Part shown: positions 5,363 to 34,718 of the stretch, one piece after another
Layout: the number at the start of each line of letters is the position of its first letter
Position numbering within the stretch: the stretch's first letter is position 1
DNA from: Nitrosopumilus sp.
GTDB lineage: Archaea; Thermoproteota; Nitrososphaeria; Nitrososphaerales; Nitrosopumilaceae
Assembly: GCA_965238275.1 (NCBI GenBank)
Contig: OZ250186.1
Span: forward strand, 256,001-320,000
DNA length: 64,000 nt
Reading direction: 5' to 3'
Made by a program: the position numbers and the translations under genes
Notes under the pieces: model-generated
Databases searched by the model: none
Told to the model about the DNA's origin: nothing
What the model saw: only the letters and a program-made list of their open reading frames with translations

Positions 5363-6136
5363 TCAGAGGAACCCTCTTCTAGCCTTTTCTTTTCTGTCCT
5401 CTATATCCAGTTGTTCCTGCAACCACGCATGTCTTTTTTTCTCATATTCCGTTATCGGGGTCGTCCTGCCAATCGTGTACATTTTGTCTGACAATCCACA
5501 CGACTCGTCCAGTATCGCGTCCAGCCGCGTCTGGTTCCCCTTGATCTTGACCGGCCGCTGCCACGCGGGGCCGTCTTTCATTTCTGGCATTATGGTGCCC
5601 GCAGGCATTGTCTGTAGCTTCGGCTTGATCGTCTCTTGCATTGCCTGCGGTTTCGGCGTAATCGTCTCTTGTGCCTTTCCCGTCCGCCGCCTAGCTTCTG
5701 CCAGCACCAAGTTGTGCTTGGTCATCATCTCTCCCAAATCTTCCACCCTTTCCATGTCCTTGGTTAGCTCGTCGTTAAGGTCTTTGAGCCTTTCGTCTTC
5801 CTGTTTTGTCCTGTTCTTCTTCTCCATCAGCACCGCCGCCTCTGCCAGCATGTCGTTCCACCACCGCTTCTCGTCCCTGTTTCTCATGTAGCCTATCTTT
5901 TCCAGATCCCGTATCCTTTCGTCCTTTTCCATCTCCTTTTTCAACTGCTCCCGGATTCTTGCCTTGATCGTTTCCATATTTTCCTGCTTGTCCATGTACA
6001 ACCCGTCTTCATCCATCCTCACGTGCACCTTTGATCCCTTTTCAATACCCATCTGCTTTGCAGCCTTCTTCGGTATGCCAACGTATATGGTCGATTTGAC
6101 CTGCAATGCTGTCATTATCCACGTTGTCTCTTCCAT
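5363..6136 (-). CDS. AbrB/MazE/SpoVT-type DNA-binding protein with helical extension
   Basis: N-terminal VGIPKKAAKQMGIEKGSKVHV motif; paralog at 32565-33227. Confidence 0.7.
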   Translation of the reverse strand: MEETTWIMTALQVKSTIYVGIPKKAAKQMGIEKGSKVHVRMDEDGLYMDKQENMETIKARIREQLKKEMEKDERIRDLEKIGYMRNRDEKRWWNDMLAEAAVLMEKKNRTKQEDERLKDLNDELTKDMERVEDLGEMMTKHNLVLAEARRRTGKAQETITPKPQAMQETIKPKLQTMPAGTIMPEMKDGPAWQRPVKIKGNQTRLDAILDESCGLSDKMYTIGRTTPITEYEKKRHAWLQEQLDIEDRKEKARRGFL

Positions 6137-6214
6137 GCCGCGTGTTCCTGTTCAGAGTTTAAGAACATTGTGCGTCTTCCTATGCTACCGATGCTATCTA
6201 TGTCACAAATACCC

Positions 6215-6234
6215 GATTTGCAATATACTATTTT
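6215..6234. promoter_or_regulatory. Conserved 20-bp motif GATTTGCAATATACTATTTT upstream of AbrB gene 1
   Basis: Exact copy at 33290-33309 upstream of AbrB gene 2; both followed by TTCCCCCA. Confidence 0.6.
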
Positions 6235-6882
6235 ACCCATTTCCCCCAGTTTCTCAGCTTTTGGCAGTCAGATTTCCCAGTCCTCCGTTATTTTGTCATG
6301 GCAAAAGCGTCCATCATTTCCAGCATTACCAGCACATCTGGTTCCGGCCAATACTCGAACCCCTCGGCATCTGACCAATACACAGTCCAGAAGTCTGTTC
6401 CGTTTACCCAGTACCGACAGTCAATTCTTCCAGCCCATCCGGAATGACGTCCCCGGTTTTGTCCGCCATTGGTTGTCATGTGATCGCCGTACCGACATAA
6501 TCATTCACGTTGTCCCAAGATGAACCGGATACCTTCTGGTCCCCTCTCGCCCGCTCATACGTCTACAGGGAGACCAGTCTTCAGTCAGTGGTGATTACTC
6601 GGCTTTTGGCCCACGGTAGAATCCCCGACTCACACGGTTCGGGTTTGGCCTCTTGGTGGCTTTACCATACGCGGCTGATACCCCACACGGAAAGTCTGGC
6701 CTCTGGTTCATTCTCTGTAGATCACGTTGTCTCAGACATGTTTTGGCAACGTTTTGGCATCTTTGGACTTGGTCTAAGGGGTTTTCCCACATGGCCTAGC
6801 TTGACCCTCCCTTTGGCTTCATCCACTGTCATAACCGACTTCCAACTGGCTTGACGAGTCTTGAACTTGGCATGTATTCACA

Positions 6883-7003
6883 AGGGGGACTCGTTCATGT
6901 CTTGGAATGTAGGGGGACTCGTTCATGTCTTGGAATGTAGGGGGACTCGTTCATGTCTTGGAATGTAGGGGGACTCGTTCATGTCTTGGAATGTAGGGGG
7001 ACT
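6883..7003. repeat. Tandem repeat, 4 x 28 bp plus a partial copy (AGGGGGACTCGTTCATGTCTTGGAATGT)
   Basis: Identical units start at 6883, 6911, 6939 and 6967; partial unit at 6995; no spacers. Confidence 0.95.
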
Positions 7004-7624
7004 TGACGTGTTTACGACTTTACATTATTGAAGACATCAATTAGACCAATTCCCAAAGTCTGAAGCCCCGAAGGATCAACCAAGCTAGATCCCTCGGACA
7101 GCCGGTCTTTGAAAGTCCAGATGGATAAGACCTGGTGACAGCCTAACAAGCGGGCGGGGGTATGTAGTAGTATCATGATCGACTCTGTTGGAGTTGTATC
7201 CTGACGTTGTGCCCTGTTTGTATGGTGGATTGGTTCTATGGTGGAACGGCTTCCGAATTCTACGATGGTACGGTTGATTGGTTCATGGTGGAGCAGTATA
7301 GGTCTGGCCCTATTGGCTCTGAAGGGATGAATTGGTCAGAACAAACCGGAACTGTGGGGCAGTGGAGGGATGGAAGGTAGGGAACAGCCTCTTCACAACT
7401 GAGGACCCCCAGTGAGGCTCCCAAACGTCCCATTTCCAGAATCCCATTCAGGGAATACCCACCCACCACCCGAGTTTTAATTGGCAGACGCCGGCAACGT
7501 AAGGCCGCCTCCGCCCTTAGGCTCCGGCGGTTAACGATGATACCATCAGCAGTATCAACACTGGACGATATCACGACGACATGACATGACATGGACAAGA
7601 GAAAGGGGGCTAATCATGTTCACA

Positions 7625-7746
7625 AGAACCCCGTAACGGGGTTCTATCCATGTCGAATCCATTGGATTCGACGATACAAGAATTCCGTAACGGAATTCTA
7701 TACACGAACCGCCATCGGCGGTTCTATATCAATTCGGCTTCGCCGA
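7625..7746. repeat. Array of 5 short perfect inverted repeats with 3-nt loops, ~27-bp period
   Basis: AGAACCCCG-TAA-CGGGGTTCT, GTCGAATCC-ATT-GGATTCGAC, AGAATTCCG-TAA-CGGAATTCT, GAACCGCC-ATC-GGCGGTTC, TCGGC-TTC-GCCGA. Confidence 0.9.
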
Positions 7747-8040
7747 TATTACTTCATGTCTTGAGTGGGCAATGATTTAAGGGGAAACAATCTATGGTGA
7801 CGAATAGTACTCGGACGCCGCCACAAGACGCACGGATACGCCAAAAAATCGTCAACAACAACTTGACCGACTACACCACTTGACTGATTATCGCCGGAGC
7901 GAGTAGAGGCGACCCAACTAGGACAATCATCAACATAACCATGAATCATGAGGCGGGCATACAAATGAAGCACCCTACAGAATCAGTAGATCAAGCCGCA
8001 TGACACCGCTGATATCTTCAAGCATACTGCAATAGCGGGT

Positions 8041-8712
8041 TTAGGTTTGTTTTGGAACAAGCATGCCCAACGACAAAAACATGTCCGACCTTGGTTTCAG
8101 CATCGCCCATTCATGAAACGTGTTCCTGTGTCCATGGATTACAGACATCGTACGCATCTTCCAAGAATCTTTCCTTAGGAAGCCATCCGGATTCCTCTGG
8201 AGTTGGTACATCATGACATGCAGTACATACAAACCTGCCAATGCAAGGTAGGCATTCCCCACACTGCCTGATACGTATCCATCCGGCAAGCGATGTTTTG
8301 AATCATTGTATGCCGTCCACCATTTCGGCATTTTTCCACAACGGGGATTCATGTGAGGATCGTCATGCTCGTAGTGGTGAATGCATGCAAAGTCGCACGA
8401 AAATGGCTTTATCGCATTCCATTCCGTACGCGTCCTAAAGGCCACTTTCTGGTTACTCAGCACACCTTCATGATCCAGATCGGCATACAGAGCAGCGGCG
8501 ACCTTGTCGCTTTTAGAAAAGCACGCCTCATGCATGATTCTCGCGATTCCCTCAATCTGACTGCATGTACTTTGCAGGATTTCATACAGACGAGGCGAGA
8601 ACGTGTCTGGGTGGTTTTCCAGGGGGATTATTCTAGTGATCTCGTTGAATGACCATTCCAAATACCTGTAGTATTCTTCAAATCTGAGCATCCTGTTATC
8701 CGGATCATCCAT
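8041..8712 (-). CDS. Hypothetical protein, possibly HEPN-like
   Basis: 223-aa ORF co-oriented with the helicase; CSQIE and PKWWTAYNDSKH motifs. Confidence 0.55.
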   Translation of the reverse strand: MDDPDNRMLRFEEYYRYLEWSFNEITRIIPLENHPDTFSPRLYEILQSTCSQIEGIARIMHEACFSKSDKVAAALYADLDHEGVLSNQKVAFRTRTEWNAIKPFSCDFACIHHYEHDDPHMNPRCGKMPKWWTAYNDSKHRLPDGYVSGSVGNAYLALAGLYVLHVMMYQLQRNPDGFLRKDSWKMRTMSVIHGHRNTFHEWAMLKPRSDMFLSLGMLVPKQT

Positions 8713-8825: not shown

Positions 8826-11800
8826 TCAGAACTGTTCCAGATCTGTTCGCGTCTCGTCGGATGCCGTGACAAAGAGCGCGCCGACCAGAATCAGTCTGCC
8901 GGGATCCGTCGTCGCACGCGCATCTTCCTTGTCCCTTGCCGCCATCTCCTTGCCGATCTTCTTCAACTCGTTTATGGCTCTCCGCACATCCGATCCTGTA
9001 TCGCACTCGTCAAGCAGCCTCTCGATGTAGTCACCCCATTGCCGCAGGTCCGCAGAATCCAATATGGAATCGGCCTCTTCTGCATCATGCTCCGTAAGGT
9101 TTCCGTCGTCGATCGCCCCATCCATCACCTCGCGGAAATGCTCTATCGTCCTCTCGCTCTTCTTGGGCTTTGAGCGGAGCTTGGCGGCCATCTTTTCGTC
9201 CTCGCTGTTGCGCCTGCCGATAGCCTCGCGCGCGATCCCGTCTATCTCCAGCAGTCTCCTGAAAGACTCTCCCCCGTTGACGGAGTCCATGGGAAGGTAC
9301 GGTTCTTCGTCTTCCCCGCACCTTACAATCTTGATTGCCTCCATGTCGTCTGCCACCTCGGCCGTTTTTGTAGAATAGTCGAATATGACGGCGTAAAACG
9401 CCCGTCGCGGCCCTTCCCGCACGTATGCCAAGACAATTTTCCTCCCCTCACCCACCTTTCCGGCCCTCCTGCCCATGGGAAACTCTTCCATCCTCATAAT
9501 CCCGGTCTTCCTGATGTGGCGGCTGATTTCGTTGAACGGGGAGGCTGTGGGCATCAGATCGGATTCGTGCTCAAGTGCGTTTGTCACCTTGCTAGAGTCG
9601 CCGTCACCTGCCAATACCCGCAGGCGTTCTGCGGTGGTTGCCTGGAAGTTTTTTGGTGATGCTTCCTGCCCCAGAAGATCCGCATCAAGGCCTACAGTGC
9701 CCTGTATGTCATCGATCTTCCCCATCAGCTTGCCTACCAATACGAGTAGCTCGTCAAGCTCCCTGTCCGGAAAGCACTCCCTAGAGTGCACCGTATCGTG
9801 TACGCTAGTAAGCCTATCCACCCTGCCGATCCTCTGCACCAACCTCATGGGGTTCCACGGCAGGTCGTAATTTACCACATAGTTGCAGTCCTGCAGGTTC
9901 TGCCCCTCCGATATCACCTCTGTCGAGACCAGTATGTCGATCTCTTCGTCCGGTCTTTCTTCCTCTTCGGACAAGTTAGCGGTAGGCGAAAACGCCCTTA
10001 TGATCTTGGGACGGTCAGATTTCCTTACGCTGCCCGTGATCAGGCCGACCCTACTCCCCTCGAACTTGCCCTGCAGGTATTTTTGCACGTACTTGGCGGT
10101 GGCCGTATACTCCGTGAACACTAACACCTTCCTGCTGCCTGACTCTAGAGCCCCGTCCTCCCGGATCGTCTCGGCCACGACTGCTGCCTTCTTGTCGTCT
10201 CCTCGTATGGCATTCAGGGCATCCAGATATTTTTTCAGATGAACAAGGTCGGACTTTATGTCTTCCCTCATGCGTCCCACGTCGTACTTGCTTGCGTCTT
10301 GCTGGGGCAGTCGCATTATCTCGTCCATGAACTCCTCATCTCTTGGCTCACCCTCATCACCATCGCCTTCCATGTCCTTGGCGTTCCACCTTAGCATGAT
10401 GCGGTTCAGCTCTTTTGGCGCCACGATGCGGTTCTCATCCAAGAGTCTGCCAAAATACTTGAACAACCTGATCTTGTTTTCTAGGCTGGCCGTTATGGCA
10501 CCAATGCTGCTCTCGAACCTCTTTAGGAGCAGTATGGTCTGGAGGTGTGCCAGCACCTTGTACCTTTGCTTCTCCTCGTCGGTGAGGGTGGTGTTGTACA
10601 TCTCCACCCCGTATGGTGTCATGTGGAGGGAGTTTATCGTATCAAGCAGGTCTTGGTATATGTTGCCGAAGCGTTCTGTCATGCTGTACCGGATCGGCCT
10701 GTAGTTCCTTTCAGGAAACGTGATGGGTTTTCCACCAAGTGCCACATCCGGGTACACTTCCCTGATGAACGTCCTTGTCCGCCTCACCATAATGGCCTCG
10801 AGAAGCAGTTGGACTTTCTCCAGTCCCTCGTCGATCTTGTGGTTTGTCGCCCGTCTCATGTAATCGTACAGGTCTGGTATCCCAATGTCGGCAAAATGAT
10901 CGTCCTTCTCGCCGGTGATTATGGATACCTGATAGTAGAGGTCCATGAGGGAGTTGTTGATCGGCGTGGCCGTCATCAACAGAACCTGTTTCCTAGGCCC
11001 CAGACTGAGCAATTTCATCAGGTTATGCCGCCTGCCGGTGATGCGTGAGCGGAAGTTCTGGCTTTCGTCTATCACTACAAAGTCGTACTTTTTGTACTTG
11101 AATACGTCAAAGTCTCTCCTGCCGAGCTCCTCAACGCCTATGGTTTTTGCCCTGATCTGTGCCTCGTCGAGCTTGTCCTCCCAGACCGTGTCCCTTACCT
11201 GTGCCGGGGCTATCAGAAGTATCTTCCTGTTCTCTACCATCTTTTTGCGCATCACCTCCAGGCCTATGTGCGTCTTGCCCAATCCGGTAGAGTCGGCAAG
11301 CATCGCCCCGCCGTGCTCGTCCATGGTCTGGAGCAGCACGGATACGGCGTCCTGCTGGAACTTGGGCAGATTAACAGATATGGGGCCTTCCTTCTCGCCC
11401 ATCGCCGTCAGCGCCCTCCTGTACTTTTCAAAGAGCATCTTCAGGTACACCTCGTGCGGCGATGCGGGCATGCCGAACTTTGACTGCTCCAGCACCTGAA
11501 GCATCTCCTCCTTGGCGTCCCTTGCACCATCCCACATCCTCTCGTACCAGTCGCGTATCTTCTTCCAAGTTGATGTAACAAAGATGCCAGCGTTCAGCTC
11601 GTCGTTCCTAGATAGGCCCGCCTCCGTAAAGTTGCTGGAGCCTATGATGGCACCCTCTTGGCCCAGTATGTAACACTTTGCGTGGTTGAACCTGGATCTT
11701 CCCAAGCGCACCTGCACGTTGTCGCGCCTCAGCAGCTTGATCAGCCCCGTGACGCTGTCCATACGATCCGTGTCAAGTTCCTCCCCACCTAAGCCCGATT

Positions 11801-12095
11801 CCAAGGTCTCAGGAAGCGTGTTGGCGTACTTGGTATACTCTTCAAACGTGTCAAAGGACGGGGGCCTCAGGGCGTCCTTGCCAACTAGCAACCTGAACCT
11901 GAACGAATCATTTGATGCTGCCCTCTCAAGTGCCTCGCGCACGGCCCCGTATCCGTTGACCTCAAAGTACCCGGTGGAGACGTCAAGGAAGTTTATCCTG
12001 CCCAGATTCATGTTGATGACGCTTGCCATGTCATGTTTCCTGTTGTCGATGATGTCCGGCTCGGCCTTTTCCTTGTCAAAATTAGGCATAGTCAT
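8826..12095 (-). CDS. PLD-nuclease/SNF2-type helicase fusion
   Basis: HAKCYI...GSSNFT (PLD); DSTGLGKT, DESQ, TATP and QRIGRVDR (SF2 helicase). Confidence 0.88.
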   Translation of the reverse strand: MTMPNFDKEKAEPDIIDNRKHDMASVINMNLGRINFLDVSTGYFEVNGYGAVREALERAASNDSFRFRLLVGKDALRPPSFDTFEEYTKYANTLPETLESGLGGEELDTDRMDSVTGLIKLLRRDNVQVRLGRSRFNHAKCYILGQEGAIIGSSNFTEAGLSRNDELNAGIFVTSTWKKIRDWYERMWDGARDAKEEMLQVLEQSKFGMPASPHEVYLKMLFEKYRRALTAMGEKEGPISVNLPKFQQDAVSVLLQTMDEHGGAMLADSTGLGKTHIGLEVMRKKMVENRKILLIAPAQVRDTVWEDKLDEAQIRAKTIGVEELGRRDFDVFKYKKYDFVVIDESQNFRSRITGRRHNLMKLLSLGPRKQVLLMTATPINNSLMDLYYQVSIITGEKDDHFADIGIPDLYDYMRRATNHKIDEGLEKVQLLLEAIMVRRTRTFIREVYPDVALGGKPITFPERNYRPIRYSMTERFGNIYQDLLDTINSLHMTPYGVEMYNTTLTDEEKQRYKVLAHLQTILLLKRFESSIGAITASLENKIRLFKYFGRLLDENRIVAPKELNRIMLRWNAKDMEGDGDEGEPRDEEFMDEIMRLPQQDASKYDVGRMREDIKSDLVHLKKYLDALNAIRGDDKKAAVVAETIREDGALESGSRKVLVFTEYTATAKYVQKYLQGKFEGSRVGLITGSVRKSDRPKIIRAFSPTANLSEEEERPDEEIDILVSTEVISEGQNLQDCNYVVNYDLPWNPMRLVQRIGRVDRLTSVHDTVHSRECFPDRELDELLVLVGKLMGKIDDIQGTVGLDADLLGQEASPKNFQATTAERLRVLAGDGDSSKVTNALEHESDLMPTASPFNEISRHIRKTGIMRMEEFPMGRRAGKVGEGRKIVLAYVREGPRRAFYAVIFDYSTKTAEVADDMEAIKIVRCGEDEEPYLPMDSVNGGESFRRLLEIDGIAREAIGRRNSEDEKMAAKLRSKPKKSERTIEHFREVMDGAIDDGNLTEHDAEEADSILDSADLRQWGDYIERLLDECDTGSDVRRAINELKKIGKEMAARDKEDARATTDPGRLILVGALFVTASDETRTDLEQF

Positions 12096-15000
12096 GGCGA
12101 TCCTCCAGCTATCTCGTCATAGTATGTGGGGGCCAGTTTGCGAACCTCGCCGTAGAACTGTCGCAGGACCTTGTTGTCATTAAAGTCGGCCGACTGGGCC
12201 GTTAGAAGGTCGGAATTTTCAAGGAATTTGAAGGACTTTAGGATTGTTTCGTATTCTTTTTTTGTCAGTCCGTACGCGTGGGCGACCAGCGCGTCCAGTT
12301 TGGCAGTTGTACGGATACGTTCAGAGGGAGCCAGGAAGACATTCTCCATTCTCAGAGACTCGGCAAACCCCTCGAATTCATCAGGACCCAAGACAAGTTT
12401 GGCAGACAGTTCCACCACATCATCGTAATGCTGCCTGTTTGGAATTGAGATTGTCTTGATGACCGTCGACACATGCATCTGAACCTTCGAACGGGATACA
12501 AAATCAAACGGCATGGAGTTGAGGATGCCGCACAGGTACGCTATCTGCTTGTTGTAGTCATCGCTGGTCTCAAGGCGTCCGTTACGGGTCAGCACGACGG
12601 AGCGCATTGAATATGTATGAAATCTTTGCGGCGGGATTATTGCGGCTATCGTTGTTCGCATGTTGGTTGAACTAGATATGTCACGAAATACCAGTCTGAA
12701 TGAATGGTAGAATTTTCTAGAGTCATTCTTGTATGCACGCTTGTGCTCTTCCCTTTGCAGGCCTGCCGACATGGGAGTGGTAAATATGGGCCTTGCAAAG
12801 GCATGATTAAACTGGTGGATATTGTTTCCCTCAAGCACCGGCCAGCCCTTCCCGCCGTCAGCCAGGAGGCCAGCATCGTTTGTCTTATCAAAACCCCTTG
12901 AGAGCGCCACGCTCCAGTCGTCCCCCAACCCCATCTCCAACGTACCACATGCAGACATCCTGGCCAGCACGGCAAGAATCTTCCCGTCAACCTCGGGGAT
13001 GTGGAGATCGTCAGGAGACAGGTCGCGGATCATTCTCTTGGAGATCGTATGGAATTTTTCTTTCTCTGCGTCCTTGGTTTCAAGCGATGACAGGTTGTGC
13101 AGGTAGAATCCGGAAGGAATATCATCCCCTCCAGGCAGGTTTCTGATTGTCAGGAGCACGAACCGATACCTGCTGTCTATGGGAAATATCTTTTTGCGGT
13201 TCTCAAAAACGTACATCTGCCGCACGTCTGAATCCAGAATCTGTTCCCGCATTCCTGCCGAGCCCGTGTTTGAGAGTACCTGGGAGGGAATGAGTACGGA
13301 TATGATGCCTCCCTCCGACACCAATGCCAGCATGCGCTCCATCATTATCTGCCACATGTCCCTGTCTCCCACGCCTTGCAGGGCATACGTTTTGTAGAAT
13401 TCCGACTTTTCACGAAACGACTGGCGAAAATCGTCGTACTCTTTCCGGATGGCGGTATCTTTTAGGATCTCATCTTGTTTGGTTATTTTTTTCGGTTTGG
13501 TGTCGATGGCGCGAAATGCCGGGTAGTGCCTGGTAAAGAATTCGTCATCGGATGGTTTTACCTTGTCCCACGGCGGGTTTCCCACGATCAGGTCAAAGCC
13601 GTGCCGGGCATCCACAAACGCGTCCATCATCTCAAGCTCCCAGTGGAAGAACCCATACTTGCTTTTCAGTCGTCGTGCAGTCGCAAACGTATTTTGCATG
13701 TCTGCATCTTCTGCTATCCGGCCAGAGAACCGGCGTATGTAGCCTGCCGCGTTCTTGCGCGCCGTTTTAGGTATCGCATTCTTGTCGATCTGTGCAGTGC
13801 AGTACACGTCCAGCATCTCCTTGTGGGGGGACATCACTCGTTCATACTCGTCGTGCGCGTCCTTACTCCGGTGGACCTGCTTTATAGTGACGTCTGCACT
13901 CTTGCTGACGCGATCGATTATGACTCCTATGTTGTCCGTTTTCTCCATCCAATCATCCAGCGATGCGCCTTTTGGATCCCCTATGTCGCTGCGCCACGCT
14001 CCCATGGTAGAGTCGCCTGCCTTGATGTGATGATTCAGGTATGTCAAAGGAACGCCAATGGCAAAAGAGTCAAGCCACAGTGAGACGCGAGCAAGCTCGA
14101 CTGCAAGCGGGTTGACGTCAACTCCAAATATGCACCGCTTCATTACGCGGCGCTTGAGCAGAACGTCATAAGTCAACAATCCCTCGTTTATGGTTATGCC
14201 GTGCTTCTTCTGTTCTGATATTACTGCCTGCCTGTCTTTTTCTATATCGGCAAGCAACGGGTGTTGTGGGTATTTCCTGAGCATGCCAGTGACCCATTTC
14301 GTAATCTGGTTCAACGCCTCAACCAGAAAGTGGCCGCTGCCCATGGAAGGATCCAATACCTGTATGTCAAGCAGCCTGTCCGTGCATGCGCGGATGTTTT
14401 TCTCATTTGGCAGGTCTCCGTACCTGCCTAGGTCAGACGGCAGTAATTTTTCGCGTTCGTCAAATATCGGCTCAAGTCCGCGCTTGACCAAAAACGATAC
14501 CATCTCCTGCGGAGTGTAGTAGCTTCCAGATGATTTTCTCGAGAGCGAACCTGTCCTTGACACTATGTAGAGGTCATTTTTCTTGTACGAGTACGTGGAC
14601 TCGGCACGGGATGCAACCTCACGCACAGCCTTGCCGTCTTCCACCAGCATGATGTCCCGATCTGCCTGGCGTACCTCGAATTCCATCAGAGTCTCGTAGA
14701 TGTTTCCCAAATGCCGTACGCCCAAACTGGCATAGTCTACAGGTTCCCCGTCCTTCTCCATGAACCCCCTCAGCGTCCGGACCGCGTGGAAATTCCTGAT
14801 GTTGATGCCGTCAATCTGCGGAGCGCTCCTGAAGAGGTCGCCGTTGTATTGCGGCAGGTTATGCTCCGGACTCCCATTCCTGACCCCACGGAACAGACTC
14901 AGGACATGCTTCCAGCAACCGTACGAGTCAGGATCCGACTCCATGTCGTCAAGAGAATAGCGTAACGCCAACAGGGACAACGGAGCGTATTTTTTGTCCC

Positions 15001-16146
15001 TGACAGGTAGCAAGTCACGCGATTCTGCATACAACAGGAACCATATGCGGTACATGATCTTTAGCGCAACCTCCTTGGCAGAGGCCAGATCGCCTGACTC
15101 GTACCTCCGAGTACCGTCATACCCCAGCACGCCTTTTACCAAGTCCACAAAGATGCCATCCGGCCTCAAAATCCGCTCAGCCAAGTTCGCCTCGAGATCT
15201 TGTACGTAGTCCCTGCCGTCGTCGAATACCACGTCTATTTTGGCCTTGCCGTTTATCTTCACGTACGACGCGGCGCCGAATACGGCCGCCAAGTACCGCA
15301 GGACTGACTTTTTTCTAGATTGCAGGTTTATCTCAAAGTAGTTGGTGGTGGATGCAGATACCCTCGACGTGTAAAGCCTCCACGTGATCCCGTCCGTGAG
15401 GATGACCCACGGTGTCACGGCAAGTTCTGCCACCGCCCTGTAGCTTGGTGCCACCTCGGCCCGGTTCCTCTGGATTCCAAAGTCCGTCCCCTTCCCAACC
15501 ACCACTATCGATGCTTCTGGAAAGGAATGAGAACGGTAAACGCCATCATTGTGATATTCAAGATCCGACCAGCCAAGCAATTCAAGTGACTTTGCAGAAT
15601 CTCCATTCCATGCCTCCTCCAAGCCATCCAGTTTTGTCGCACCGCCTTCAAGCAGTCTGGTCTTTAGGTAGTGTGTAGAGAAGACGCCCTTGTTGATGAA
15701 ATCTACGGCAGTGGTGGGTATGTTCTGTATAGTATTCTTGATGGCCGCCGCATCTTCAGGCTGGTGCCGGCAGACGCAAAACCGGCAGAAGAAAGCGCCG
15801 TGACCGCCTGTTCGCAGGCGTCAGTGCCGTCTAATGCAAAGACCAAGCTGCTTGATGCAGACTTGAAGTAGAGGCTGTAGTTTGATTTCAGACAGAGCAA
15901 TACAATACAGTGAAAGATGCCGGAGACCTGTCGTTTTGCGTCCGGGATAGCCTTGGCCTTGTGCTCAAATAGCAATACCGGGATTGGAGTGTCGTTACCG
16001 TCAGCCCGCGTGAACCTGTACCGTCCCCATCCGGCGGAGTTGTTGTCGGGGAGGGGCCTGCATTCTTCCGACAGACCCATGGAATCCAAGACTCCTTTGA
16101 TCCTGTTTGGAAATTGAGGGGTTTTTTCAGAATCTTTTATCATCAC
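12092..16146 (-). pseudogene. Type IIG/Eco57I-like N6-adenine methyltransferase-endonuclease, frameshifted near 15750 (main ORF 12092-15622)
   Basis: DPSMGSGHF and GNPPW motifs; the main frame continues upstream of 15622 as FINKGVFSTHYLKTRL and joins the 147-aa ORF by a 1-nt shift. Confidence 0.75.
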
Positions 16147-22160: not shown

Positions 22161-23745
22161 AGAAAATATGCGTAATCCCCCTGTTCACATCGATAAATTT
22201 AGATCAGGCACGATCGCGTCTCACATCAAATGCCAGACTCGCCTGATCAGATCATGCACAGATTGGAACAGGAAAACAGAAGCCTAAAAAATATTCTAAA
22301 GCAGAAAGACAAAAAGCTGGAACAGAAAGACAAAAAGCTGGAACAGAAAGACAAAAAGCTGGAACAGAAAGACAAAAAGCTGGAACAGAAAGACAAAAAG
22401 CTGGAACAGAAAGACAAAACCCTAAAAAATATTCTAAAGCAGAAAGACAAAAAGCTGGAACAGAAAGACAGGGAGTTGGGCCTTGAACGCGGCCTGTGGA
22501 AGAGCAGGAACGATGGCTGGAACCCCGGCAAGGGGCCAGCGTTGCACCTGCTAGAGGTGCTAGACGGCATAATACGCGACGGGGACAAGCTCCGCCATGT
22601 CACGCTGGCAGACGGGGAACAGTTCCGGTACATGCTGGAGCGGGCCAAGGTGTTTCTGACGCATTCGGGCCAGATGCCGCTGTTCCGCGATAACGCATCC
22701 CGGGTCTCCGATCCCGGAAACCGGTGCAAACTGTACCTGAGACACGCACTGCTCCTAGCACTTATCCGCAAAAAGGACAACCCCGCCCAAGGCGTGCTTG
22801 CCGCATTCTTCGGGATAGACCAGACCACCGTGTCCCGGTACATTCCGGTGATGGATGCGATGCTGGCAGGAATACTTCCGACGGCAGACAACATATCCGA
22901 GGAGGTAGCTGCTGCCCCGACCAAGGAGGATTTCAAGAAGATCGTGCCCGGGTCCGACGGGGGCGAGATATTCATAGACGGCACGCACTGCCCCGTGCAG
23001 CGCCCGTCTGTAAAGTCAGTCCGGCGCATGAAATACTCCGGCAAGAAGAAAAAGTTCACCAACAATACCAACGTGTACGCCAACCGGGACGGGGTGGTGA
23101 TCGGCATATCAAAAAGCACCGTCGGGTCAGTCGGCGACATCACGCTGCTCAAGGAACGCCCCATGCCGTTTGGAAAGTGGGAGGAGGCGATGCACGATCC
23201 GGATCTGCCAGAATCAGACAGGTGCCACCCCTTCGTCGACCGCGGCTACCAGGGAATCGCAGACCACCTGCCCGGCACCACGCCGGAGATCCCGTACAAG
23301 AAGACCAGGGACACGCCGCTGACGCCGGAGCAAAAAAAGCACAACCACAGGATCAACTCCACCCGGGTGTTGGTGGAGCACGCCATAGGCAGGCTCAAGC
23401 GCTACGCGCGTCTTGCCGACCCGTACGACGGCAACGCGGCGCAGTTCAACCGGGAGTTCAACGTGATCACCGGGCTGGTAAACCTGAACCTTTTGTGGGA
23501 CTGCATGGAAAAGGGCCCGCCACCACCGGGGCAGTGGAAGACGTCAGTAGACTGGGACAGGGCCTGCTCCCAAGCTCCGGTCAAGTAGAATTCAGGGCAC
23601 GATGAAGTGCTGCAAGGCTGCGCACGTCATTTTGGATTTTGGGGTGAACGGACTTGCCACATACCAGACACGACTAGTTTTAGGCCGTATTTTTCCGGTT
23701 TTTTATGGCCGGGTTGGCAAAATGGGTGGATTACGCATATCTTCT
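22161..23745 (+). mobile_element. IS5-family (DDE_Tnp_4) element copy 1; transposase 22230-23588
   Basis: TIR AGA(A/G)AATATGCGTAATCC / GGATTACGCATATCTTCT; 3-bp TSD ATT; IDGT, DRGYQG and RVLVEH motifs. Confidence 0.9.
22292..22470 (+). repeat. In-frame 21-bp repeats encoding QKDKKLE heptads
   Basis: CAGAAAGACAAAAAGCTGGAA units; arrangement differs among the three IS copies. Confidence 0.9.
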
Positions 23746-23748
23746 ATT

Positions 23749-25345
23749 AGAGAATATGCGTAATCCCCCTGTCCACATCGATAAATTTAGATCAGGCACG
23801 ATCGTGTCTCACATCAAATGCCAGACTCGCCTGATCAGATCATATACAAGTTGCAGCAGGAAAACAAAAGACTAAAAAATATTCTAAAGCAGAAAGACAA
23901 AAAGCTGGAGCAGAAAGACAAAAAGCTGGAGCAGGAAAACAAAAGCCTAAAAAATATTCTAAAGCAGAAAGACAAAAAGCTGGAGCAGAAAGACAAAAAG
24001 CTGGAGCAGGAAAACAAAAGCCTAAAAAATATTCTAAAGCAGAAAGACAAAAAGCTGGAGCAGAAAGACAGGGATCTGGGCCTTGAGCGCGGCCTGTGGA
24101 AGAGCAGGGACGATGGCTGGAACCCCGGCAAGGGGCCCGCGCTGCATCTGCTAGAGGTGCTAGACGACATAATACGCGACGGGGACAAGCTCCGCCATGC
24201 CACGCTGGCAGACGGGGAACAGTTCCGGTACATGCTGGAGCGGGCCAAGGTGTTTCTGACGCATTCGGGCCAGATGCCGCTGTTCTGCGATAACGCATCC
24301 CGGGCCTCCGATCCCGGAAACCGGTGCAAGCTGCACCTGAGGCACGCGCTGCTCATGGCGCTGATGCACAAAAAGGAAAACATCACGCAGGGAACGCTTG
24401 CCGCGTTCTTCGGGATAGACCAGTCCACCGTGTCCCGGTACTTTCCTGTGATGGACGCGATGCTGGCAGGAATACTTCCGACGGCAGACAACATATCCGA
24501 GGAGGTAGCTGCTGCCCCGACCAGGGAAGATTTCAAGAAGATCGTGCCAGGATCGGATGGGGGCGAGATCTTCATAGACGGCACGCACTGCCCCATACAG
24601 CGCCCGTCCGTAAAGTCAGTCCGGCGCATGAAATACTCCGGCAAGAAGAAAAAGTTTACCAACAATACCAACGTGTACACCAACCGGAACGGGGTGGTGA
24701 TCGGCATATCAAAAAGCACCGTCGGGTCAGTCGGCGACATCACGCTGCTCAAGGAACGCCCCATGCCGTTTGGAAAGTGGGAGAAGGCGATGCACGATCC
24801 GGACCTGCCAGAATCAGACAGGTGCCACCCATTCGTCGACCGCGGCTACCAGGGAATCGCAGACCACCTGCCCGGCACCACGCCGGAGATCCCGCACAAG
24901 AAGACCAGGGACACGCCGCTGACGCCGGAGCAAAAAAAGCACAACCACAGGATCAACTCCACCCGGGTGTTGGTGGAGCACACGATAGGCAGGCTCAAGC
25001 GCTACGCGCGCCTCACCGACCCGTACGACGGCAACGCAGCCGGGTTCAACAGGGAGTTCAACGTGATCACAGGGCTGGTAAACCTGAATCTTTTGTGGGA
25101 CTGCATGGAAAAGGGCCCGCCGCCACCGGGGCAGTGGAAGACGTCAGTAGACTGGGACAGGGCCTGCTCCCAAGCTCCGGTCAAGTAGAATTCAGGGCAC
25201 GATGAAGTGCTGCAAGGCTGCGCACGTCATTTTGGATTTTGGGGTGAACGGACTTGCCACATGCCAGACACGAGTAGTTTTAGGCCGTATTTTTCCGGTT
25301 TTTTATGACCGAGTTGGCGAAATGGGCGGATTACGCATATCTTCT
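23749..25345 (+). mobile_element. IS5-family element copy 2, tandem to copy 1; transposase 23818-25188
   Basis: Same TIRs; 3 bp from copy 1; truncates the IS481 transposase. Confidence 0.9.
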
Positions 25346-29699: not shown

Positions 29700-31954
29700 G
29701 GGCCAGCATAAAAAATGACACCATAGATGTAGTTTGTTTCACAACCCTGCCCAGCATCCATGCCAGTCATTCCAGAATGGCATCGCCGTCTGCCCATGCC
29801 GCCGTCAAGACGACACAAGCCAACAAAAATCAATACGATGATCAACCATCTTAGGCAGAAAAGCACAAGGATCAGATCAACTGTGTGCAATCATGGACAG
29901 GAATGAAGAAAAACCGGCCAAGCAGAAATCGCGGCTAAAGATAACGCACGCCCAAAACGATGCCAGGTACGTGGAGATGGGCAAGCTGCTCCACCTGCAA
30001 AAGGATCCCGGCTCTGACGGAGAACTGGATCGCATGAACGCAAACAAGAACGGGCGCCCATACCAGTACCCGGACGTGGCCGTGATGGCAATTGCAGGAA
30101 TACGCTCAATCTACGGCACCCTGTCGTACCGAATGTGTCAGGGGATGGCCATGTCGGCACTTGGCCAAGAGGACGCCCCAGACCACGTCACACTGTGGAG
30201 AAGGATACGCGGCATGAAAGTGCGGCAGGAGGGTGGCGTGACTGCAATCCAAAACGGCAGCGACGTCTTGTGCCTGGTGCCTGACGCCACCGGACTCGCA
30301 CCCTCCACGCGCAGCGACTGGATACACCACAAGCACAGAAAGGTGCGCGGATTCATCAAGCTGAGCGTCATGATAAACCAGGAGACGAGGGAAATACTGG
30401 CCTTCAGGGTGACTGACGAGAGGAAAGGCGACTCGTCCCAGTTCAATGATCTCGTAGACGACTCGCTGAAGATTCTCGGCCTGGATGCGGCAGGACTCAG
30501 GGACGGCGTCGGCAAGGCGAAGGTAAGGGAAGCACGGCGTGCAGCAGGTTCCAAAAAATCCCAAAGCAAGGATCATCCCGATGCCGGGGATGTCCCGGAC
30601 GGATCCTGTGCGGCCGGCGTCGAGAACGCGACCGGGCCGTACGGCCGTGTGCCTTTCTGCCCGGTCATGCACGCAGGGGGAGGGCAGATCGTAATAGAAC
30701 TGCGTGGAGATGCAGGATACGACACGAGGGCGATATTCGAATACTGTCACAGATTAGGCATCGTGCCGCTCATCAGGATAAAGAAAAACGCCAACGGCCG
30801 GGCCAATGGAGTGGGCAGGACGCGCGGGCTTGCCGCGCAGGATCAGATGTGTGGCAGCAACCCCAGTCCGAAGAAGCTGGCCTCGCTAGACGTGGACGAA
30901 CGCGTCTCCAACCAAAAGGAATGGAAGGAGCGCGTGGGGTACGGGCGGCGATGGCTGGTAGAGATCGTATTCTCGTCACTCAAAAGGATATTTGGCTGCT
31001 CGGTCAACGCGGTAAAGATGGAAAACATAGTACAAGAGATTGCAATAAGGATCCGGACATACAACATGCTGCTGGCAGTGGCACGTGAGGCGATAGCGAT
31101 GGCGTGAACAAAACGGCCATGTTTTGGCGTCGTTGAAATTTGGATGACGGTAAGGCATAGTTGTGAAACTAACTACCATAGATGCAAGGACCCTTGCCCA
31201 CCTGCTGAGGTCCAACCTGGTCGCAGCCTGCCACATAGGCTCGGCCGAATCCAGGGGGATCAAGCAGGTCCTCAGATACCAGATGACCCTGGTGCGGGAC
31301 CGCACTAAAGTGATCAACTCCGTGCACGCGCTGACAGACAAGTACGACATAAATCCAAAAGATGGCGGTGCCCACGTCTGGAACGGAAAGGCCCTGAGGT
31401 ACCTTGAAGAGGCAGACATGAGGAACCTGCAGGACAGGTTCGTGCTAGACGGCTACATATCGCAGATACGCCACTACAACGACGGGATCAAAAGAACCGA
31501 ATGCGAGATCAAGGGATACGTCCGGGACTCCCACGCTCCAAAGATACTGCTGAGCATGACGGGAATGAACGTGTTTTCTGCGGCGCTGCTGGCAGCGGAG
31601 ATCGACACCATCGCAAGGTTTGGGAGTCCAAAAAAGCTGGTATCTTGGGCCGGCATGTGCCCGACGCTTCACCAGTCAGGCGACACGTCATACCACGGCA
31701 GGATGAAAAAGGATTCGAACCGGAAGGTCAACTGGATCATGATCCAGTGCGCGCTTACGGCAGTGCGCCATGACAAGAGGATGAAGGAATACTACACGCG
31801 TCTCATGAAGAGACACAGGCACAACATCGCCATGACGCATGTGGCAAACAAGATGCTGACGATCATCTGGCACATGCTGACAGAAGGCAACCTGTACGAG
31901 GATAGAAACGAGAAACTGTACCGCGCCAAGATCAAAGAGGTCATGAGGGCGTAG
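29700..31954 (+). pseudogene. IS110-family recombinase, 5'-truncated and interrupted by IS5
   Basis: Removing the IS restores IKNDTIDARTLAHLLR; HQSG and VANKMLTIIWHML motifs. Confidence 0.8.
29730..31175 (+). mobile_element. IS5-family element, same element as 733-2178 in opposite orientation; transposase 29893-31107
   Basis: Identical 404-aa protein; same TIRs; 9-bp TSD CCATAGATG. Confidence 0.92.
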
Positions 31955-32564
31955 ACGCGGAACCGGCGGTGTCAGTAGACGATGATGATGCCGGATCTAG
32001 CGGATGCTGTATACAAATTATGGGAATGACGGGTGTTTTTACATGAATGCTGGGGGGCCAGCCCCCCAGACCCCCCGAAGGAGGATTATGCACGTCACCC
32101 CGCGGGGCAAAAAGCCATTTTTCTGCTGATCCGGCAGGATTCTACTCGCAGGTAATGCTTAAGAAGACAAAAAACATACCCAAAGTGACAAGTTGGACGC
32201 AAAACCTGGATAAGTCCGGGGATGGGTTAACATAGATGTGGATCCCAACCAACATCCATCCAACCAATACGTGTCAGATCACCCGATTTGAACAGAGTCT
32301 CCATGGCCAACACAAGATCATCAGATCCACATGCCTTTCGTTTTATTTGGAACGAATTTTGGCGTGTCGCTATACATCAGGTCCTATGTCAACGAGCATT
32401 CGAAGTCACTTCACAGGTAGCCGATAGACCAGCGATGGGTCAAGCAGCAGAGTCCGGATGTTTCGTTCATGATACCCGGTGTTTCCGCTAACATCAGGCA
32501 AAATTTTGCCTAAAGTTACACCGTTCCAGATATAACTCGGCAAAAAGACCACACGTAATCTCGG

Positions 32565-33227
32565 TTAGTCCATTTTTGCTGATTCCTTTTTTATGAGATC
32601 TGCCAGATTCTTATAATCCTCCCTTTCCTTGTCCGTTGCATGTTCCTTGCCCGGCATTTCCCACATCAGCCACGTCAATACTACGCTTTCATGTTCCAAT
32701 GCTTCCAGTCGTTCCTTGTTGTATTTTGAATCACTTTCCACAGCAGCGTGCCTTGCCGCGACCTTCGGATCCGGTTCTATCCGCAGCCTCTCGGTGTCTG
32801 CTGCCATCATATTGTCATAACATTTCAGCAGATCGTCTTCTGCCTTGGCCTTATCCCTCTTTGCTCCCAGTTCATCACGCACCTTTCTAAATGCGTTATA
32901 GTTGGCTCTTTCCTCATCTGTTCGTCTCCGAAATTCCGGTTTGGGTTTCCATGCCGGCTTGGATATGGTTTTGATGTTACTGGCTTTATCCGTGGTCTTT
33001 CTTTGTGGTTCGGATTCTTCCGATTTCATCTTCTTCAGTGCTTCCTCTACGGTTTCCTGTTTCCCGACAATGAATCCATCCGTGCGTTCAAATATTCGGA
33101 GTTGCATGCCCTTCTCGATTTCCAGTCTTCCTGCAAGTTGTTTTGGTATTGTGAGTACCAAGCTGGTGTTGTTTGTCGTTACGGTGCGTATCCAGTCTCT
33201 TGCGATCTTCTTTTTTGCCATACGCAC
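32565..33227 (-). CDS. AbrB/MazE/SpoVT-type DNA-binding protein with helical extension
   Basis: SLVLTIPKQLAGRLEIEKGMQL motif. Confidence 0.7.
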   Translation of the reverse strand: MRMAKKKIARDWIRTVTTNNTSLVLTIPKQLAGRLEIEKGMQLRIFERTDGFIVGKQETVEEALKKMKSEESEPQRKTTDKASNIKTISKPAWKPKPEFRRRTDEERANYNAFRKVRDELGAKRDKAKAEDDLLKCYDNMMAADTERLRIEPDPKVAARHAAVESDSKYNKERLEALEHESVVLTWLMWEMPGKEHATDKEREDYKNLADLIKKESAKMD

Positions 33228-33289
33228 GTCTTGTTTTTGACCAATTATAAGGATTTCTCAATTACATGTGTTTTACATGTAAAAAATAA

Positions 33290-33309
33290 GATTTGCAATA
33301 TACTATTTT
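33290..33309. promoter_or_regulatory. Second copy of GATTTGCAATATACTATTTT
   Basis: Exact match to 6215-6234 at a similar distance from the AbrB start. Confidence 0.6.
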
Positions 33310-33458
33310 TCTTATTCCCCCAATATTCTGTCAAAAACAGGTGTTAAATTCTGTCAAAATAAGACCAGTGATTCAACACCGTCTCTTAAACTGAACCAGA
33401 CTGAGTAGATCCAGTCAACCATTTGCCCCCTTCGGTGGTTTGTCCGGAAGCAACACGA

Positions 33459-33478
33459 CGTATTACATTTGTAATACG
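33459..33478. promoter_or_regulatory. Perfect 9-bp inverted repeat, candidate operator
   Basis: CGTATTACA-TT-TGTAATACG; TTACAT also recurs at 33262, 33273 and 33482. Confidence 0.4.
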
Positions 33479-34195
33479 GTGTTACATTCAAGAACTGACT
33501 GCCTGGATTTCAAGATTGTGATCCGATAATCCCCAACTTAGCCATACATCTTGTTCTTTCCCTGTCACGTCATTGAGATCCATACGGTGTCACTTCTTCG
33601 TAAGCAATTTTGGCACGTCGTTTTCCTGTTCCATCCCTCTGGTCCTTTCAGCCTGTCTCTGGTAGACCGGGTACACGCCTGGTAGCTGTCAACATGGCAG
33701 CCCGGGTACAGTCATACTTCTTGACTATGTCCTGAAACCCTGTCATTGTCTCTAGCCCGGTTTGTATTGAGAACTCTGTCCTCATGTCCTGTCCCCTGTT
33801 CCGGCCTTATCGACATAGACGTGGTTGGCGGCCTGGTAGATGTGATCAGATTCATACCAGACAGGGTACCAGAGGACAAAAACACCCTAGAGAACTTTGT
33901 ACATTTCAGATCTGTTCAACACCAGATTCGAGTAATATTCCGCCTCGGCTGTAGTCTCGGATTTCGCTTCGCGTTGGAGGTCGGCCTCCGGCTCCGCCTC
34001 CGGCCTCTCCCGGAACCGTCACCAGTAACCACCCCCACGAACGCCGCTAGGTCCCACACACAGCTCCCAGACACCGTTGCCCCATACGAGTCCCACACAC
34101 GAGTATGGAGCCATCCCCATGATGTATCATTCGCTCCTACGGAATATCATGGAATCATTCCACTATGGAGTAATATCAGGCTCCGTTTGACTAGT

Positions 34196-34471
34196 GTCTG
34201 ACTACGTCAGACTATGTGTCGGGCTCCGCCCGACTAAGGTCCAACAAGGTTGGACTATAGACGGCCTACGGCCGTCTGAGAGCACGCCCCCCCTTGTTCT
34301 AGTGTCCGGCAAAGCCGGACTATGGTACGGCCATAAGGCCGTACATGTACATGAGATTCTCTTAGAGAATCTCTGGGCTCGGCCCTTGGGGGCCGTAGAA
34401 CCGGCCTTGTGGCCGGATGGTATAGAATCCCATCACGGGATTCACGGTACAGTCAAGCCTTATGGCTTGAC
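34196..34471. repeat. Array of 11 short perfect inverted repeats (6-9 bp stems, 3-5 nt loops)
   Basis: e.g. GTCTGAC-TAC-GTCAGAC, GTCGGGC-TCC-GCCCGAC, GTCCAAC-AAG-GTTGGAC, AGACGGCC-TAC-GGCCGTCT, GTCCGGC-AAA-GCCGGAC, GAGATTCTC-TTA-GAGAATCTC. Confidence 0.92.
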
Positions 34472-34718
34472 ATGGATCCATTGGCAGTTCACGGTTGAGA
34501 TATGCTCTTTGTGTGCGCAGACAACCGACGCCGAAGCCGGAAGAGGCATCGCAGCCATAAGAGATGCCGTCAGTAAGAGCCAAAAACCCAAAAAACGAAT
34601 AAAGATTCCGGCAAAGACAGTTACGCTCCTAACTTTTCAAATCTCGGCGTACGGGATTGATTGTAATCCGGCAATGATTTTCGTGTTCCCCCGCATCCAT
34701 GACAGTACTCACATACAA

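Follow-up and report, generated by a model that had tools for sequence, protein, structure and literature searches.

The 64,000 nucleotides of DNA analysed here, called the window below, are positions 256,001 to 320,000 of contig OZ250186.1 of the archaeon Nitrosopumilus sp. (assembly GCA_965238275.1), and they contain two regions, modules A and B, that are built on one plan. Each begins with a leftward gene for an AbrB-type DNA-binding protein, has a conserved block just upstream of that gene, continues through a long stretch poor in open reading frames (ORFs) with a GC-rich patch, and ends in a row of short hairpins (Table 1). Module A lies beside a probable integrase gene, and module B beside the gene of a TraG/VirD4-like ATPase. 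Our best reading of modules A and B is as a control region, present in two diverged copies, that belongs to a TraG/VirD4-ATPase type of integrated element, as carried by Nitrosopumilus-type archaea. The narrower proposal, that each module is a cis-acting, origin-like region for replication or transfer, defined by its shape and placed under an AbrB switch, is a function that we infer from sequence, and we hold it tentatively, at somewhat less than an even chance. A single rearranged element could be the source of both copies, or else a stack of two elements at a tRNA-Lys gene.

Table 1. Positions of the features in the window, in order along the forward strand.
Feature	Position	Strand	Remarks
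tRNA-Lys (UUU), probable integration site (attL side)	2297..2371	+	ARAGORN, Rfam
Probable divergent tyrosine integrase, C-terminal coiled coil	3637..5235	+	Atlas language-model feature score 0.98
AbrB-A, AbrB/MazE-fold DNA-binding protein, 257 aa, long charged helical tail	5363..6136	-	PF04014 E 4e-4
Conserved 41-bp block, copy A	6215..6254	+	TATA-like core GCAATATAC then TTTCCCCCAG; local AT-rich trough
Non-coding spacer, + strand C-rich	6255..6882		GC skew -0.05 to -0.40; all frames lack a coding signal
Perfect 28-bp tandem repeat, 4.3 copies	6883..7003	+	core TGGAATGTAGGGG
GC-rich patch A (GCCGCCTCCGCC..GGCTCCGGCGG)	7480..7535		GC 0.59 at 7450-7549
Hairpin array A	7625..7750		4 perfect palindromes, stems 8-10 bp, and weaker hairpin 7734-7748 (RNA fold)
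Fifth copy of 28-bp repeat core, TTCATGTCTTG	7753..7763	+	directly after array A
AbrB-B, AbrB/MazE-fold protein, 220 aa, three long C-terminal helices	32565..33227	-	PF04014 E 8e-4
Palindrome TTACATGT-N5-ACATGTAA, candidate operator	33262..33282		between AbrB-B start and conserved block
Conserved 41-bp block, copy B	33290..33329	+	regional GC minimum, 0.26
Remnant of small membrane-protein gene, 96 nt	33812..33907	+	matches C-terminal half of L037 14868-15125
GC-rich patch B	33966..34005		two GCTNCGC heptamers; 12-nt repeat TCGGCCTCCGGC/TCCGCCTCCGGC
Hairpin array B	34196..34471		11 perfect palindromes with 6-10-bp stems and 1-5-nt loops
T-runs (T6, T5), probable ATPase terminator	34570..34600	-	A-runs on + strand at 34582, 34590
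TraG/VirD4-like coupling-type ATPase, 1187 aa	34719..38282	-	PF12696, PF10412 over cut-offs
13-nt copy of tRNA-Lys 3' end (CCTTTAGACCCGC), putative attR	54761..54773	+	island far end; could be chance match

The hairpin arrays

The arrays, which an earlier note on this DNA had described by inspection, are real. They are about 130 bp long in module A and 280 bp in module B, where the array lies some 250 nt past the 3' end of the ATPase gene, and their members follow one another every 26-28 nt in A and mostly every 21-28 nt in B. Three hairpins of array A end in TTC and then TAT; the first five units of array B follow the scheme CTAGT-GTCnnnn-loop-nnnnGAC-TAT, with the TAT present in most. Counted over all hairpins, TAT comes right after the stem in 3/5 cases in A and 3/11 in B (to which one TAA and one TAG can be added), against a background frequency of 0.013-0.014 per position. 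Duplication produced the units of array B, as they are direct repeats that have diverged to 65-77% identity; since the units are paralogous, the TAT that follows the hairpins may reflect shared descent.

Single hairpins are common in this genome, and rows of them are rare: 914 perfect hairpins with a stem of at least 7 bp were found genome-wide, and only three arrays of at least three, namely those of the two modules and one cluster of three members, so that four or more occur in A and B only. Hairpins cover 0.72 and 0.47 of the sequence per 200 nt at the arrays, for a mean of 0.042 (standard deviation 0.069). Compared with shuffled sequences, array B folds with a z-score of -9.5 as RNA and -10.5 as DNA; for array A the value is -6.0.

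The pairing itself is conserved. In an alignment of five paralogous units of array B, all 35 cells are paired; changes on both sides occur in four of the seven pairs, one-sided changes in none, and no shuffle out of 500 reached the covariation score. A wider count, taken over 43 hairpins from 11 module regions with a search that tolerated one internal mismatch per stem, gave 335 Watson-Crick pairs, one G-T, three A-C and one other pair; several of these hairpins are perfect palindromes around a 1-nt centre. Helices under selection as RNA are usually biased by strand, and G-U pairs make up an appreciable part of them. Stems that are almost purely Watson-Crick and strand-symmetric thus favour DNA hairpins or cruciforms as the object of selection, or else a mutational process by which palindromes stay perfect, and the composition of the arrays points to DNA hairpins or cruciforms rather than to structured RNA.

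At gathering score, the only Rfam family in the window is that of the tRNA-Lys, and the arrays belong to none. Nor do they look like members of the REP/BIME, MITE or CRISPR classes: the stems are all different, there are two arrays only, and identical repeats with spacers are absent. Among contigs of public DNA runs that cover 32000-39000, sequences identical to the window over module B were present in the runs X1-X3, one second contig of X1 carried indels at 34293-34395, and no joint indicating excision was seen.

The AbrB-type proteins

Both small genes had been called AbrB-type in the earlier note, an assignment that holds on several grounds taken together. The PF04014 scores, 20.7 bits for AbrB-A and 19.8 for AbrB-B, are under the gathering cut-off of 24.7; AbrB-A also matches the TIGR01439 AbrB model (E 5e-4), its reading frame has a strong codon signal, and the two proteins are 26% identical to each other (E 8e-10). 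The AlphaFold model of AbrB-B has strands at 15-19 and 22-26, a helix at 29-34 and strands at 43-48 and 51-56, with a pLDDT of 75-85 there: this is the beta-beta-alpha-beta-beta, or swapped-hairpin, topology of MazE and AbrB, followed by three long helices. The best rows returned by Foldseek for this model are MazE, VapB, SpoVT, AbrB and C68, the last of which we take to be an autoregulator, and every E-value is at least 0.1; the best superposition is on MazE (1mvf_D), with a root mean square deviation of 1.6 over 42 columns. A family-profile search of the PDB agrees, as its 12 best matches all belong to the AbrB/MazE/SpoVT superfamily, headed by C56 (E 0.003). C68 of pSSVx (PDB 3o27) and C56 (PDB 7xi6) also show this small swapped-hairpin DNA-binding fold on archaeal mobile elements, but they are 56-68 aa long, whereas the proteins of the window bear an additional helical tail of 150-200 aa. 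In a set of 5.8 billion proteins, the only word-sharing relative of AbrB-A among 491 candidates was AbrB-A itself. The palindrome at 33262-33282 may be the operator of AbrB-B.

The ATPase and related loci

The ATPase beside module B, which the earlier note had described as VirD4-like, is recognized as such by Pfam. The protein collection holds 63 members of its family, itself included, some with Nitrosopumilus or Thaumarchaeota as named source; the closest, P0003-P0008, are 57-83% identical to it. The family occurs in 47/269 genomes of the taxonomic family and in 10/24 genera, and a scan of viral contigs returned no relative. A second, partial copy is present in the same genome at 455035-456471 (residues 637-1113, 49% identity), and no hairpin array, motif or AbrB-type gene of the family was detected beside it.

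We read 21 related loci: L037, from a metagenome-assembled genome of Nitrosopumilus sp., and 20 stretches taken by place, all designated below by similar labels. In most of them a small AbrB-type ORF lies directly after the ATPase gene and is convergent on it. With L053 left out, 13/20 such ORFs have a PF04014 match (E up to 0.01), three of them over the cut-off. Upstream of the AbrB gene come iterons that are specific to each element, such as six 22-bp copies in L037, six 9-bp copies in L043 and six 43-bp copies in L055, while palindromic ATGCAT-type repeats are found in L050, L052 and L057; altogether the relatives have 6-27 tandem copies of units of 9-43 bp. Beyond the iterons, two to five GC-rich perfect hairpins with unrelated stems occur in L037, L043, L049, L052, L055, L056 and L057. 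Long tandem arrays are likewise found beyond the iterons, with about 27 copies of an 18-bp unit in L037 and 12 copies of a 19-bp unit in L057.

Clusters of at least three hairpins in 160 nt are enriched on the AbrB side: the first 4 kb there contain one in 10/21 loci, compared with 4/21 in the remaining 15 kb or so. The elements that carry them span 31-56% GC and are unrelated in sequence, and the clusters are in the same place.

Four side observations concern these loci. A ParM-like actin gene (MreB_Mbl/ALP_N) lies just upstream of the ATPase gene in 8/21 loci (L049, L050, L052-L057), where it resembles, in combination with the AbrB-type protein and the iterons, a partition set of ParMRC style whose adaptor has the AbrB fold; neither the window nor the genome has a ParM-like gene, as a type II (ParM/ParR/parC) partition system would. 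The small proteins of this ParM-bearing subgroup end in a conserved motif, LEKLRIK, and the remaining ones in NPLxDLxL. In L043, from a 31%-GC genome, two GC-rich patches at 6397-6445 and 7298-7350 are inverted repeats of each other (arms of 15 and 21 nt, 90-93% complementary) and flank about 900 bp in which a 72-aa zinc-ribbon-like ORF lies together with the hairpin array; such a segment could be invertible or mobile, and the GC patches of the window have no such inverted partner. Finally, a perfect 44-bp palindrome (TTACCCGCAAACTGTCATA..TATGACAGTTTGCGGGTAA) is repeated two to three times upstream of the ATPase operon in L052 (12270-12440) and L053 (2510-3160), two elements of one genome.

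A supplementary annotation table of Krupovic et al. 2019 (PMC6563490) includes AbrB-family regulators on thaumarchaeal elements, with 20 occurrences. The words 'AbrB', 'hairpin' and 'non-coding' are absent from the main text of that paper.

The conserved block

The two modules are little alike overall, as the earlier note had said: the sole significant match returned by blastn is 41 nt long and 85% identical, at 6215-6254 and 33290-33329. A second, weak local similarity joins 7089-7224 in A to 33633-33768 in B, over about 135 nt, with a z of 4.6 against shuffles. The block opens with a 20-mer, GATTTGCAATATACTATTTT, that is exact at 6215-6234 and 33290-33309, and lies 63-80 bp upstream of the leftward AbrB gene in both modules, in agreement with the earlier claim of an identical motif at this place. 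Allowing up to three mismatches, no third site was found in the window, and none of 100 shuffled windows contained two or more matches. There is no other copy in the genome, a single contig of 2,216,668 bp with a GC content of 52.7%, and 400 other genomes of the order lack an exact copy too; matches with three mismatches in these 400 genomes are noise, because controls with the reversed pattern match too.

Shorter versions of the motif reach the related loci. The 9-mer core GCAATATAC has nine copies in the 466 kb of window and loci, against none for its reversed control, and six of the nine are in module context: the two of the window, and one each in L037, L040, L043 and L044. The 15-mer TTCGCAATATACTAT, with at most two mismatches, is found near the AbrB gene in 5/21 loci (L037, L039, L040, L043, L044), 150-215 bp upstream of it, and only once away from modules in the other 350 kb. 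The box is always directed away from the AbrB gene. The expectation of the earlier note that AbrB loci keep both motif and arrays is therefore borne out in part, by hairpin clusters in 10 and the motif core in five of the 21 loci, and fails in the remainder.

The box is kept while the iterons and the AbrB proteins vary, which makes a conserved factor a more likely reader than the AbrB protein; such a factor could be, for example, the transcription machinery or the ATPase. Downstream of the box there is a membrane-protein gene in L040, L044, L046 and L048, and an 85-aa ORF in L037, an arrangement that suits a rightward promoter, and the box may be one. A promoter matrix was derived from the 37 tRNA promoters of the genome, whose consensus, CTAAAGGATTAAAA, lies about 38 nt before the mature 5' end of the tRNA; in the block, GATTT precedes the conserved CCCCCA by 32-33 nt. 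Local GC is 0.40 at the block of A and falls to the tabulated minimum in B, for 0.527 in the genome. Such an AT-rich trough might be the unwinding region of an origin, or simply a promoter region.

Metagenome and viral scans were run with an 18-nt version of the motif instead of 20 nt, which raised the noise. They returned at least 120 metagenome stretches and eight viral ones, and in the 128 loci examined none encodes an AbrB-like protein or a relative of the ATPase: nearly all of these matches are thus chance hits in AT-rich DNA. The sole module-like context among the 128 is L172, a metagenome contig of 1.9 kb in which three palindromic repeats, rich in GGGTAGGGTA, come after the motif.

The ORF-poor stretches

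The measure of coding potential was a codon log-likelihood, for which 467 long ORFs of the genome served as training set. Its peaks in five real genes are 0.45-0.84, and there roughly every sixth window, the one in the true frame, is over 0.15. Module A stays at or below 0.058 in any frame, and module B rises only at 33800-33979(+), to 0.217. That segment includes the stretch 33812-33907, which matches the 85-aa membrane-protein ORF of L037 (tblastx, 47% over 32 aa, E 4e-7), and consequently module B is not wholly free of coding sequence. None of five ORFs tested inside the stretches has a Pfam family. The modules are thus non-coding save for one decayed remnant in B; the earlier description of both as lacking a convincing ORF stands for A and needs this correction for B. 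Among 200 genomes of the family, no DNA homologue of 6137-8040 was found.

Module A has the iterons typical of plasmid origins, in the form of its 28-bp repeat, and module B has no tandem repeat besides the hairpin units. The 28-bp repeat has a core, TGGAATGTAGGGG, that matches the chromosomal origin-recognition boxes beside orc1 at their own core (TGGAAATGAAGGGG, two copies) with two errors, and a regular expression drawn post hoc to fit both finds only those six sites genome-wide. As a case of mimicry of the host origin the likeness was rejected: with up to two errors, the genome has 30 matches and its shuffled version 25, which is not significant. The repeats of L037 have only GTGGAATG in common with the box of their host.

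The GC-rich patches reported earlier are genuine, with GC contents of 0.57-0.59 over 7400-7549 and 0.65-0.66 over 33950-34099. Clusters of the GCTNCGC heptamer were found only in module B of the window, L037 and L043.

Interpretation

The mechanism that we propose has three steps. Comparison of the loci shows the first: the AbrB-fold protein is the standing partner of the ATPase gene, with element-specific repeats upstream of it; in one sub-clade these are followed by a conserved box, AT-rich and TATA-like. In the second, the AbrB protein would bind the repeats, or the palindrome, between its own start and the box, and so set both the leftward transcription of its own gene and the rightward transcription, in the manner of a Kor- or CopG-type switch. 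In the third, the palindrome array, whose strand-symmetric pairing appears to be selected, would be used as DNA and not as RNA: the palindromes may form hairpins when the duplex is supercoiled, unwound or single-stranded, and these hairpins would be a landing or priming site recognized by shape, for the hexameric ATPase of the element or a primase, that is, a structure-defined origin like that of pRN1. Nearby tandem repeats and GC patches might act as auxiliary sites for protein binding. As the island is riddled with insertion sequences, the copies in the window may no longer work.

Several observations weigh against an origin of this kind. The Pfam scan of 52 ORFs of the window contains no cognate initiator (Rep, Orc1/Cdc6 or primase-helicase), no primase or SF3 helicase domain like that of ORF904, no HUH nuclease, and no relaxase family, such as a relaxase-type transfer origin (oriT) would be paired with; genome-wide, the single match to Cdc6_C is far from the window. 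Nor is there, across the elements, a conserved gene of unassigned function that is able to fill the role of initiator. The motif core has no match in 16/21 related loci, hairpin clusters are missing or marginal in 11/21, the arrays of the window are far larger than those of any relative, and the order of the parts relative to the ATPase gene is not the same in the window and in the relatives. The TATA-like box scores 4.0 and 4.3 bits in its two orientations with the promoter matrix, for a median of 10.5 among tRNA promoters. The 28-bp repeat resembles the host origin box only weakly, and in L043, L056 and L057 no likeness is seen between the repeats and the boxes of the hosts. Perfect palindromes could also persist unselected, through template switching, and the island is decayed. 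Of the earlier suggestion of an origin of a thaumarchaeal mobile element, then, the mobile setting is retained, with its tRNA-Lys island, ATPase family and AbrB partner, and no Rep, relaxase or primase gene was found to go with it.

The alternative that survives best, unlikely as we judge it, is that there is only a switch. The AbrB gene and the box would form a divergent promoter and operator, the rest would be leader or junk, and the arrays would be two-way transcription barriers, or insulators, between convergent units, with no part in replication or transfer. An insulating terminator has been described for the bacterial element Tn916 (in the material used from PMC11658703). Both arrays do lie between convergent units, B with the box on one side and the 3' end of the ATPase gene (own T-runs at 34582-34595) on the other, and A ahead of the 3' end of the gene at 8041-8712(-); and with a membrane-protein gene after the box in four relatives, the box is usable as an ordinary promoter. 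However, archaeal termination is thought to depend on T-runs, not on hairpins, and on the + strand neither array is followed by a run of five or more T. The minus-strand T-runs at 34570-34600, about 120-150 nt past the ATPase gene's stop codon, probably terminate that gene. Moreover, eleven hairpins in a row far exceed the needs of a barrier, and in L057 hairpins and repeats are upstream of a cargo operon and not between convergent genes.

A more specific proposal keeps the arrays as functional DNA and assigns them to the neighbouring enzyme: they would be the recognition and loading site of a relaxase-less ATPase of TraG/VirD4 type, an archaeal counterpart of oriT or clt read not by sequence but by shape, as cruciforms or single-strand hairpins, with the AbrB protein as the adaptor through which this DNA reaches the ATPase. 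In the portions of PMC6563490 used here, neither a relaxase nor a transfer origin is identified for archaeal conjugative or integrated elements, and Krupovic et al. 2019 did not find a relaxase in thaumarchaeal ones (same source). We regard this proposal as unlikely.

The earlier note had left the choice between an origin and a long structured non-coding RNA (ncRNA) controlled by the AbrB protein; an origin-type region fits better, given the Watson-Crick symmetry of the stems and the lack of an Rfam match. An ncRNA or leader, transcribed rightward from the box, with RNA hairpins that serve as protein sponge or processing substrate, is in our opinion quite unlikely. The distance from GATTT to CCCCCA fits the geometry of a promoter box, for which tRNA genes of this genome have about 38 nt to the mature 5' end; the + strand is free of runs of five or more T up to the arrays; the RNA fold z-score of array B is strongly negative at -9.5; and L055 has, by eye, a TATA-like box about 100 nt ahead of its hairpins. 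But one G-U pair in 340, the lack of strand bias and palindromes with 1-nt centres are not what RNA leads one to expect, no Rfam family is matched, the promoter score is low, and the region shows no sequence conservation in 200 genomes of the family.

Least probable of all, and very unlikely in our view, is a functionless by-product, made of decayed genes in a dead island full of insertion sequences and of palindromes that arose by slippage, template switching or as small selfish palindromic repeats: the gene remnant in B, the many transposase ORFs and the duplicated units of array B would suit it, but module A has no coding trace in any frame, comparable hairpin clusters occupy the same place in elements of unrelated sequence over a wide range of GC, the genome has no further such arrays despite its 914 single hairpins, and the stem sequences differ, unlike those of REP or MITE families.

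Comparison with known systems

We found no named feature like the modules, in line with the earlier note, and the partial parallels are the stem-loop of pRN1 and section B of the Sulfolobus conjugative plasmids. Of these, pRN1, whose repressor has a fold of CopG type, unlike AbrB, is the nearest parallel with experimental support, and section B the nearest descriptive one.

As far as the excerpts of PMC4234260 go, the pRN1 origin is a stem-loop 3' of the gene of the replication ATPase, conserved in structure and not in sequence. Like the modules, the origin of this Sulfolobus plasmid family is non-coding, lies 3' of a hexameric-ATPase gene and is needed as structure, and a small repressor, Orf56, controls the operon. 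It differs in being one stem-loop of about 100 nt, where the window has rows of 5-11 short hairpins, and in its partner, the primase-helicase ORF904, of which no homologue was found in the window; its function was shown by deletion, that of the window is deduced from sequence (PMC4234260).

Section B of pNOB8, pKEF9, pTC1 and other such plasmids is likewise an ORF-free, repeat-rich intergenic region that is regarded as the origin, in plasmids that lack a relaxase and have TraG and TrbE homologues, and it contains a short conserved word, TCTATACCCCC, amid element-specific direct and inverted repeats (PMC4390865). The sequences are different, the plasmids are crenarchaeal, and the relevant part of that source describes no phased array of variable, perfect hairpins; the origin function of section B is itself only predicted, from Z-curve and GC skew (PMC4390865).

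Short DNA hairpins in the non-coding DNA of mobile elements are also known from ssiA and ssiB of RSF1010 (PMC4234260) and from the sso of ICEBs1 (PMC4595007). According to the parts of these sources used here, they are active only in opened or single-stranded DNA, where a primase or polymerase recognizes their shape (PMC4234260, PMC4595007). They consist of one or two defined hairpins, or of one long imperfect hairpin, they are strand-specific, and their partner enzymes are known. The arrays of the window, in contrast, have 5-11 strand-symmetric perfect palindromes.

The integrative and conjugative elements of actinomycetes, whose repressor is of GntR type and whose transfer locus, clt, lies near traB, resemble the island in their general organization. 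Within what is drawn here from PMC2440964, they integrate in tRNA genes and have an integrase, one large FtsK-like DNA-translocating ATPase and small hydrophobic proteins; a small repressor acts, in a kil-kor switch, on an inverted repeat between divergent genes, and double-stranded DNA is transferred without a relaxase. These elements are bacterial, the same excerpts describe no hairpin arrays, and the ATPase of the window is TraG/VirD4-like by Pfam (PMC2440964).

The island and its other genes

The modules lie in an integrated island, riddled with insertion sequences, that extends from the tRNA-Lys gene to 54761-54773; core genes, argininosuccinate lyase among them, resume from 54819 on. The integrase named in the earlier note is placed by language-model features with Phage_integrase clusters of Nitrososphaerota (0.98), and by tblastn it is 50% identical to an ORF in L053; it has no sequence match in Pfam or the PDB.

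At least 15 transposase ORFs are found in the island, of the IS66, IS110, DDE_Tnp_4, DDE_3 and rve types. The same 404-aa DDE_Tnp_1 ORF occurs twice in the window, at 801-2015(-) and 29893-31107(+). Perfect tandem repeats of 21 bp and 75 bp at 22302-22419, 23848-24070 and 39401-39562 lie within the 5' parts of three DDE_Tnp_4 genes, and would encode a repeated charged (K/Q/E-rich) N-terminal segment.

The stretch 32234-32467, near module B, reaches a summed contig depth of 100 to 3000 in four public DNA runs, for just 0-16 at 32468-34573. Two pieces of it, 32253-32297 and 32340-32374, are found on many unrelated contigs. The stretch is not multicopy in the genome, where it has two partial matches, and a widespread small element may end here.

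A cargo operon at 8826-15622(-) adjoins module A and is probably a defence system: it encodes a fusion of PLD nuclease and SNF2 helicase (1089 aa), then an Eco57I/MmeI-like methylase (1176 aa). In L057 an SNF2/NOV_C helicase and a methylase come after the hairpins, in the same position. Adjacent genes for CARF/HFX_2341-like, ThiF-family and TIR-domain proteins at 46034-49638 are a possible second defence cassette. Outside the island, amid core genes, 60779-62224(+) is a TnpB/Cas12f-like ORF (OrfB_IS605 and Cas12f1-like TNB).

Significance

In full-text searches of the literature we found no account of such arrays, or of a pairing of AbrB-type protein and ATPase, in thaumarchaeal elements. If the arrays are inert, the finding shrinks to an ordinary unit of repressor and promoter in a decayed island. 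If, on the other hand, they load the ATPase, they would be the first proposed cis-acting transfer origin for archaeal conjugative elements. The analysis supplies short and concrete candidates, namely the two arrays of 130 and 280 bp and the homologous positions in other elements, together with a conserved pair, the AbrB-type protein and the ATPase, that is directly testable in vitro. A row of hairpins so variable in sequence and so perfectly paired would also illustrate, with unusual clarity, how selection acts on the secondary structure of DNA.

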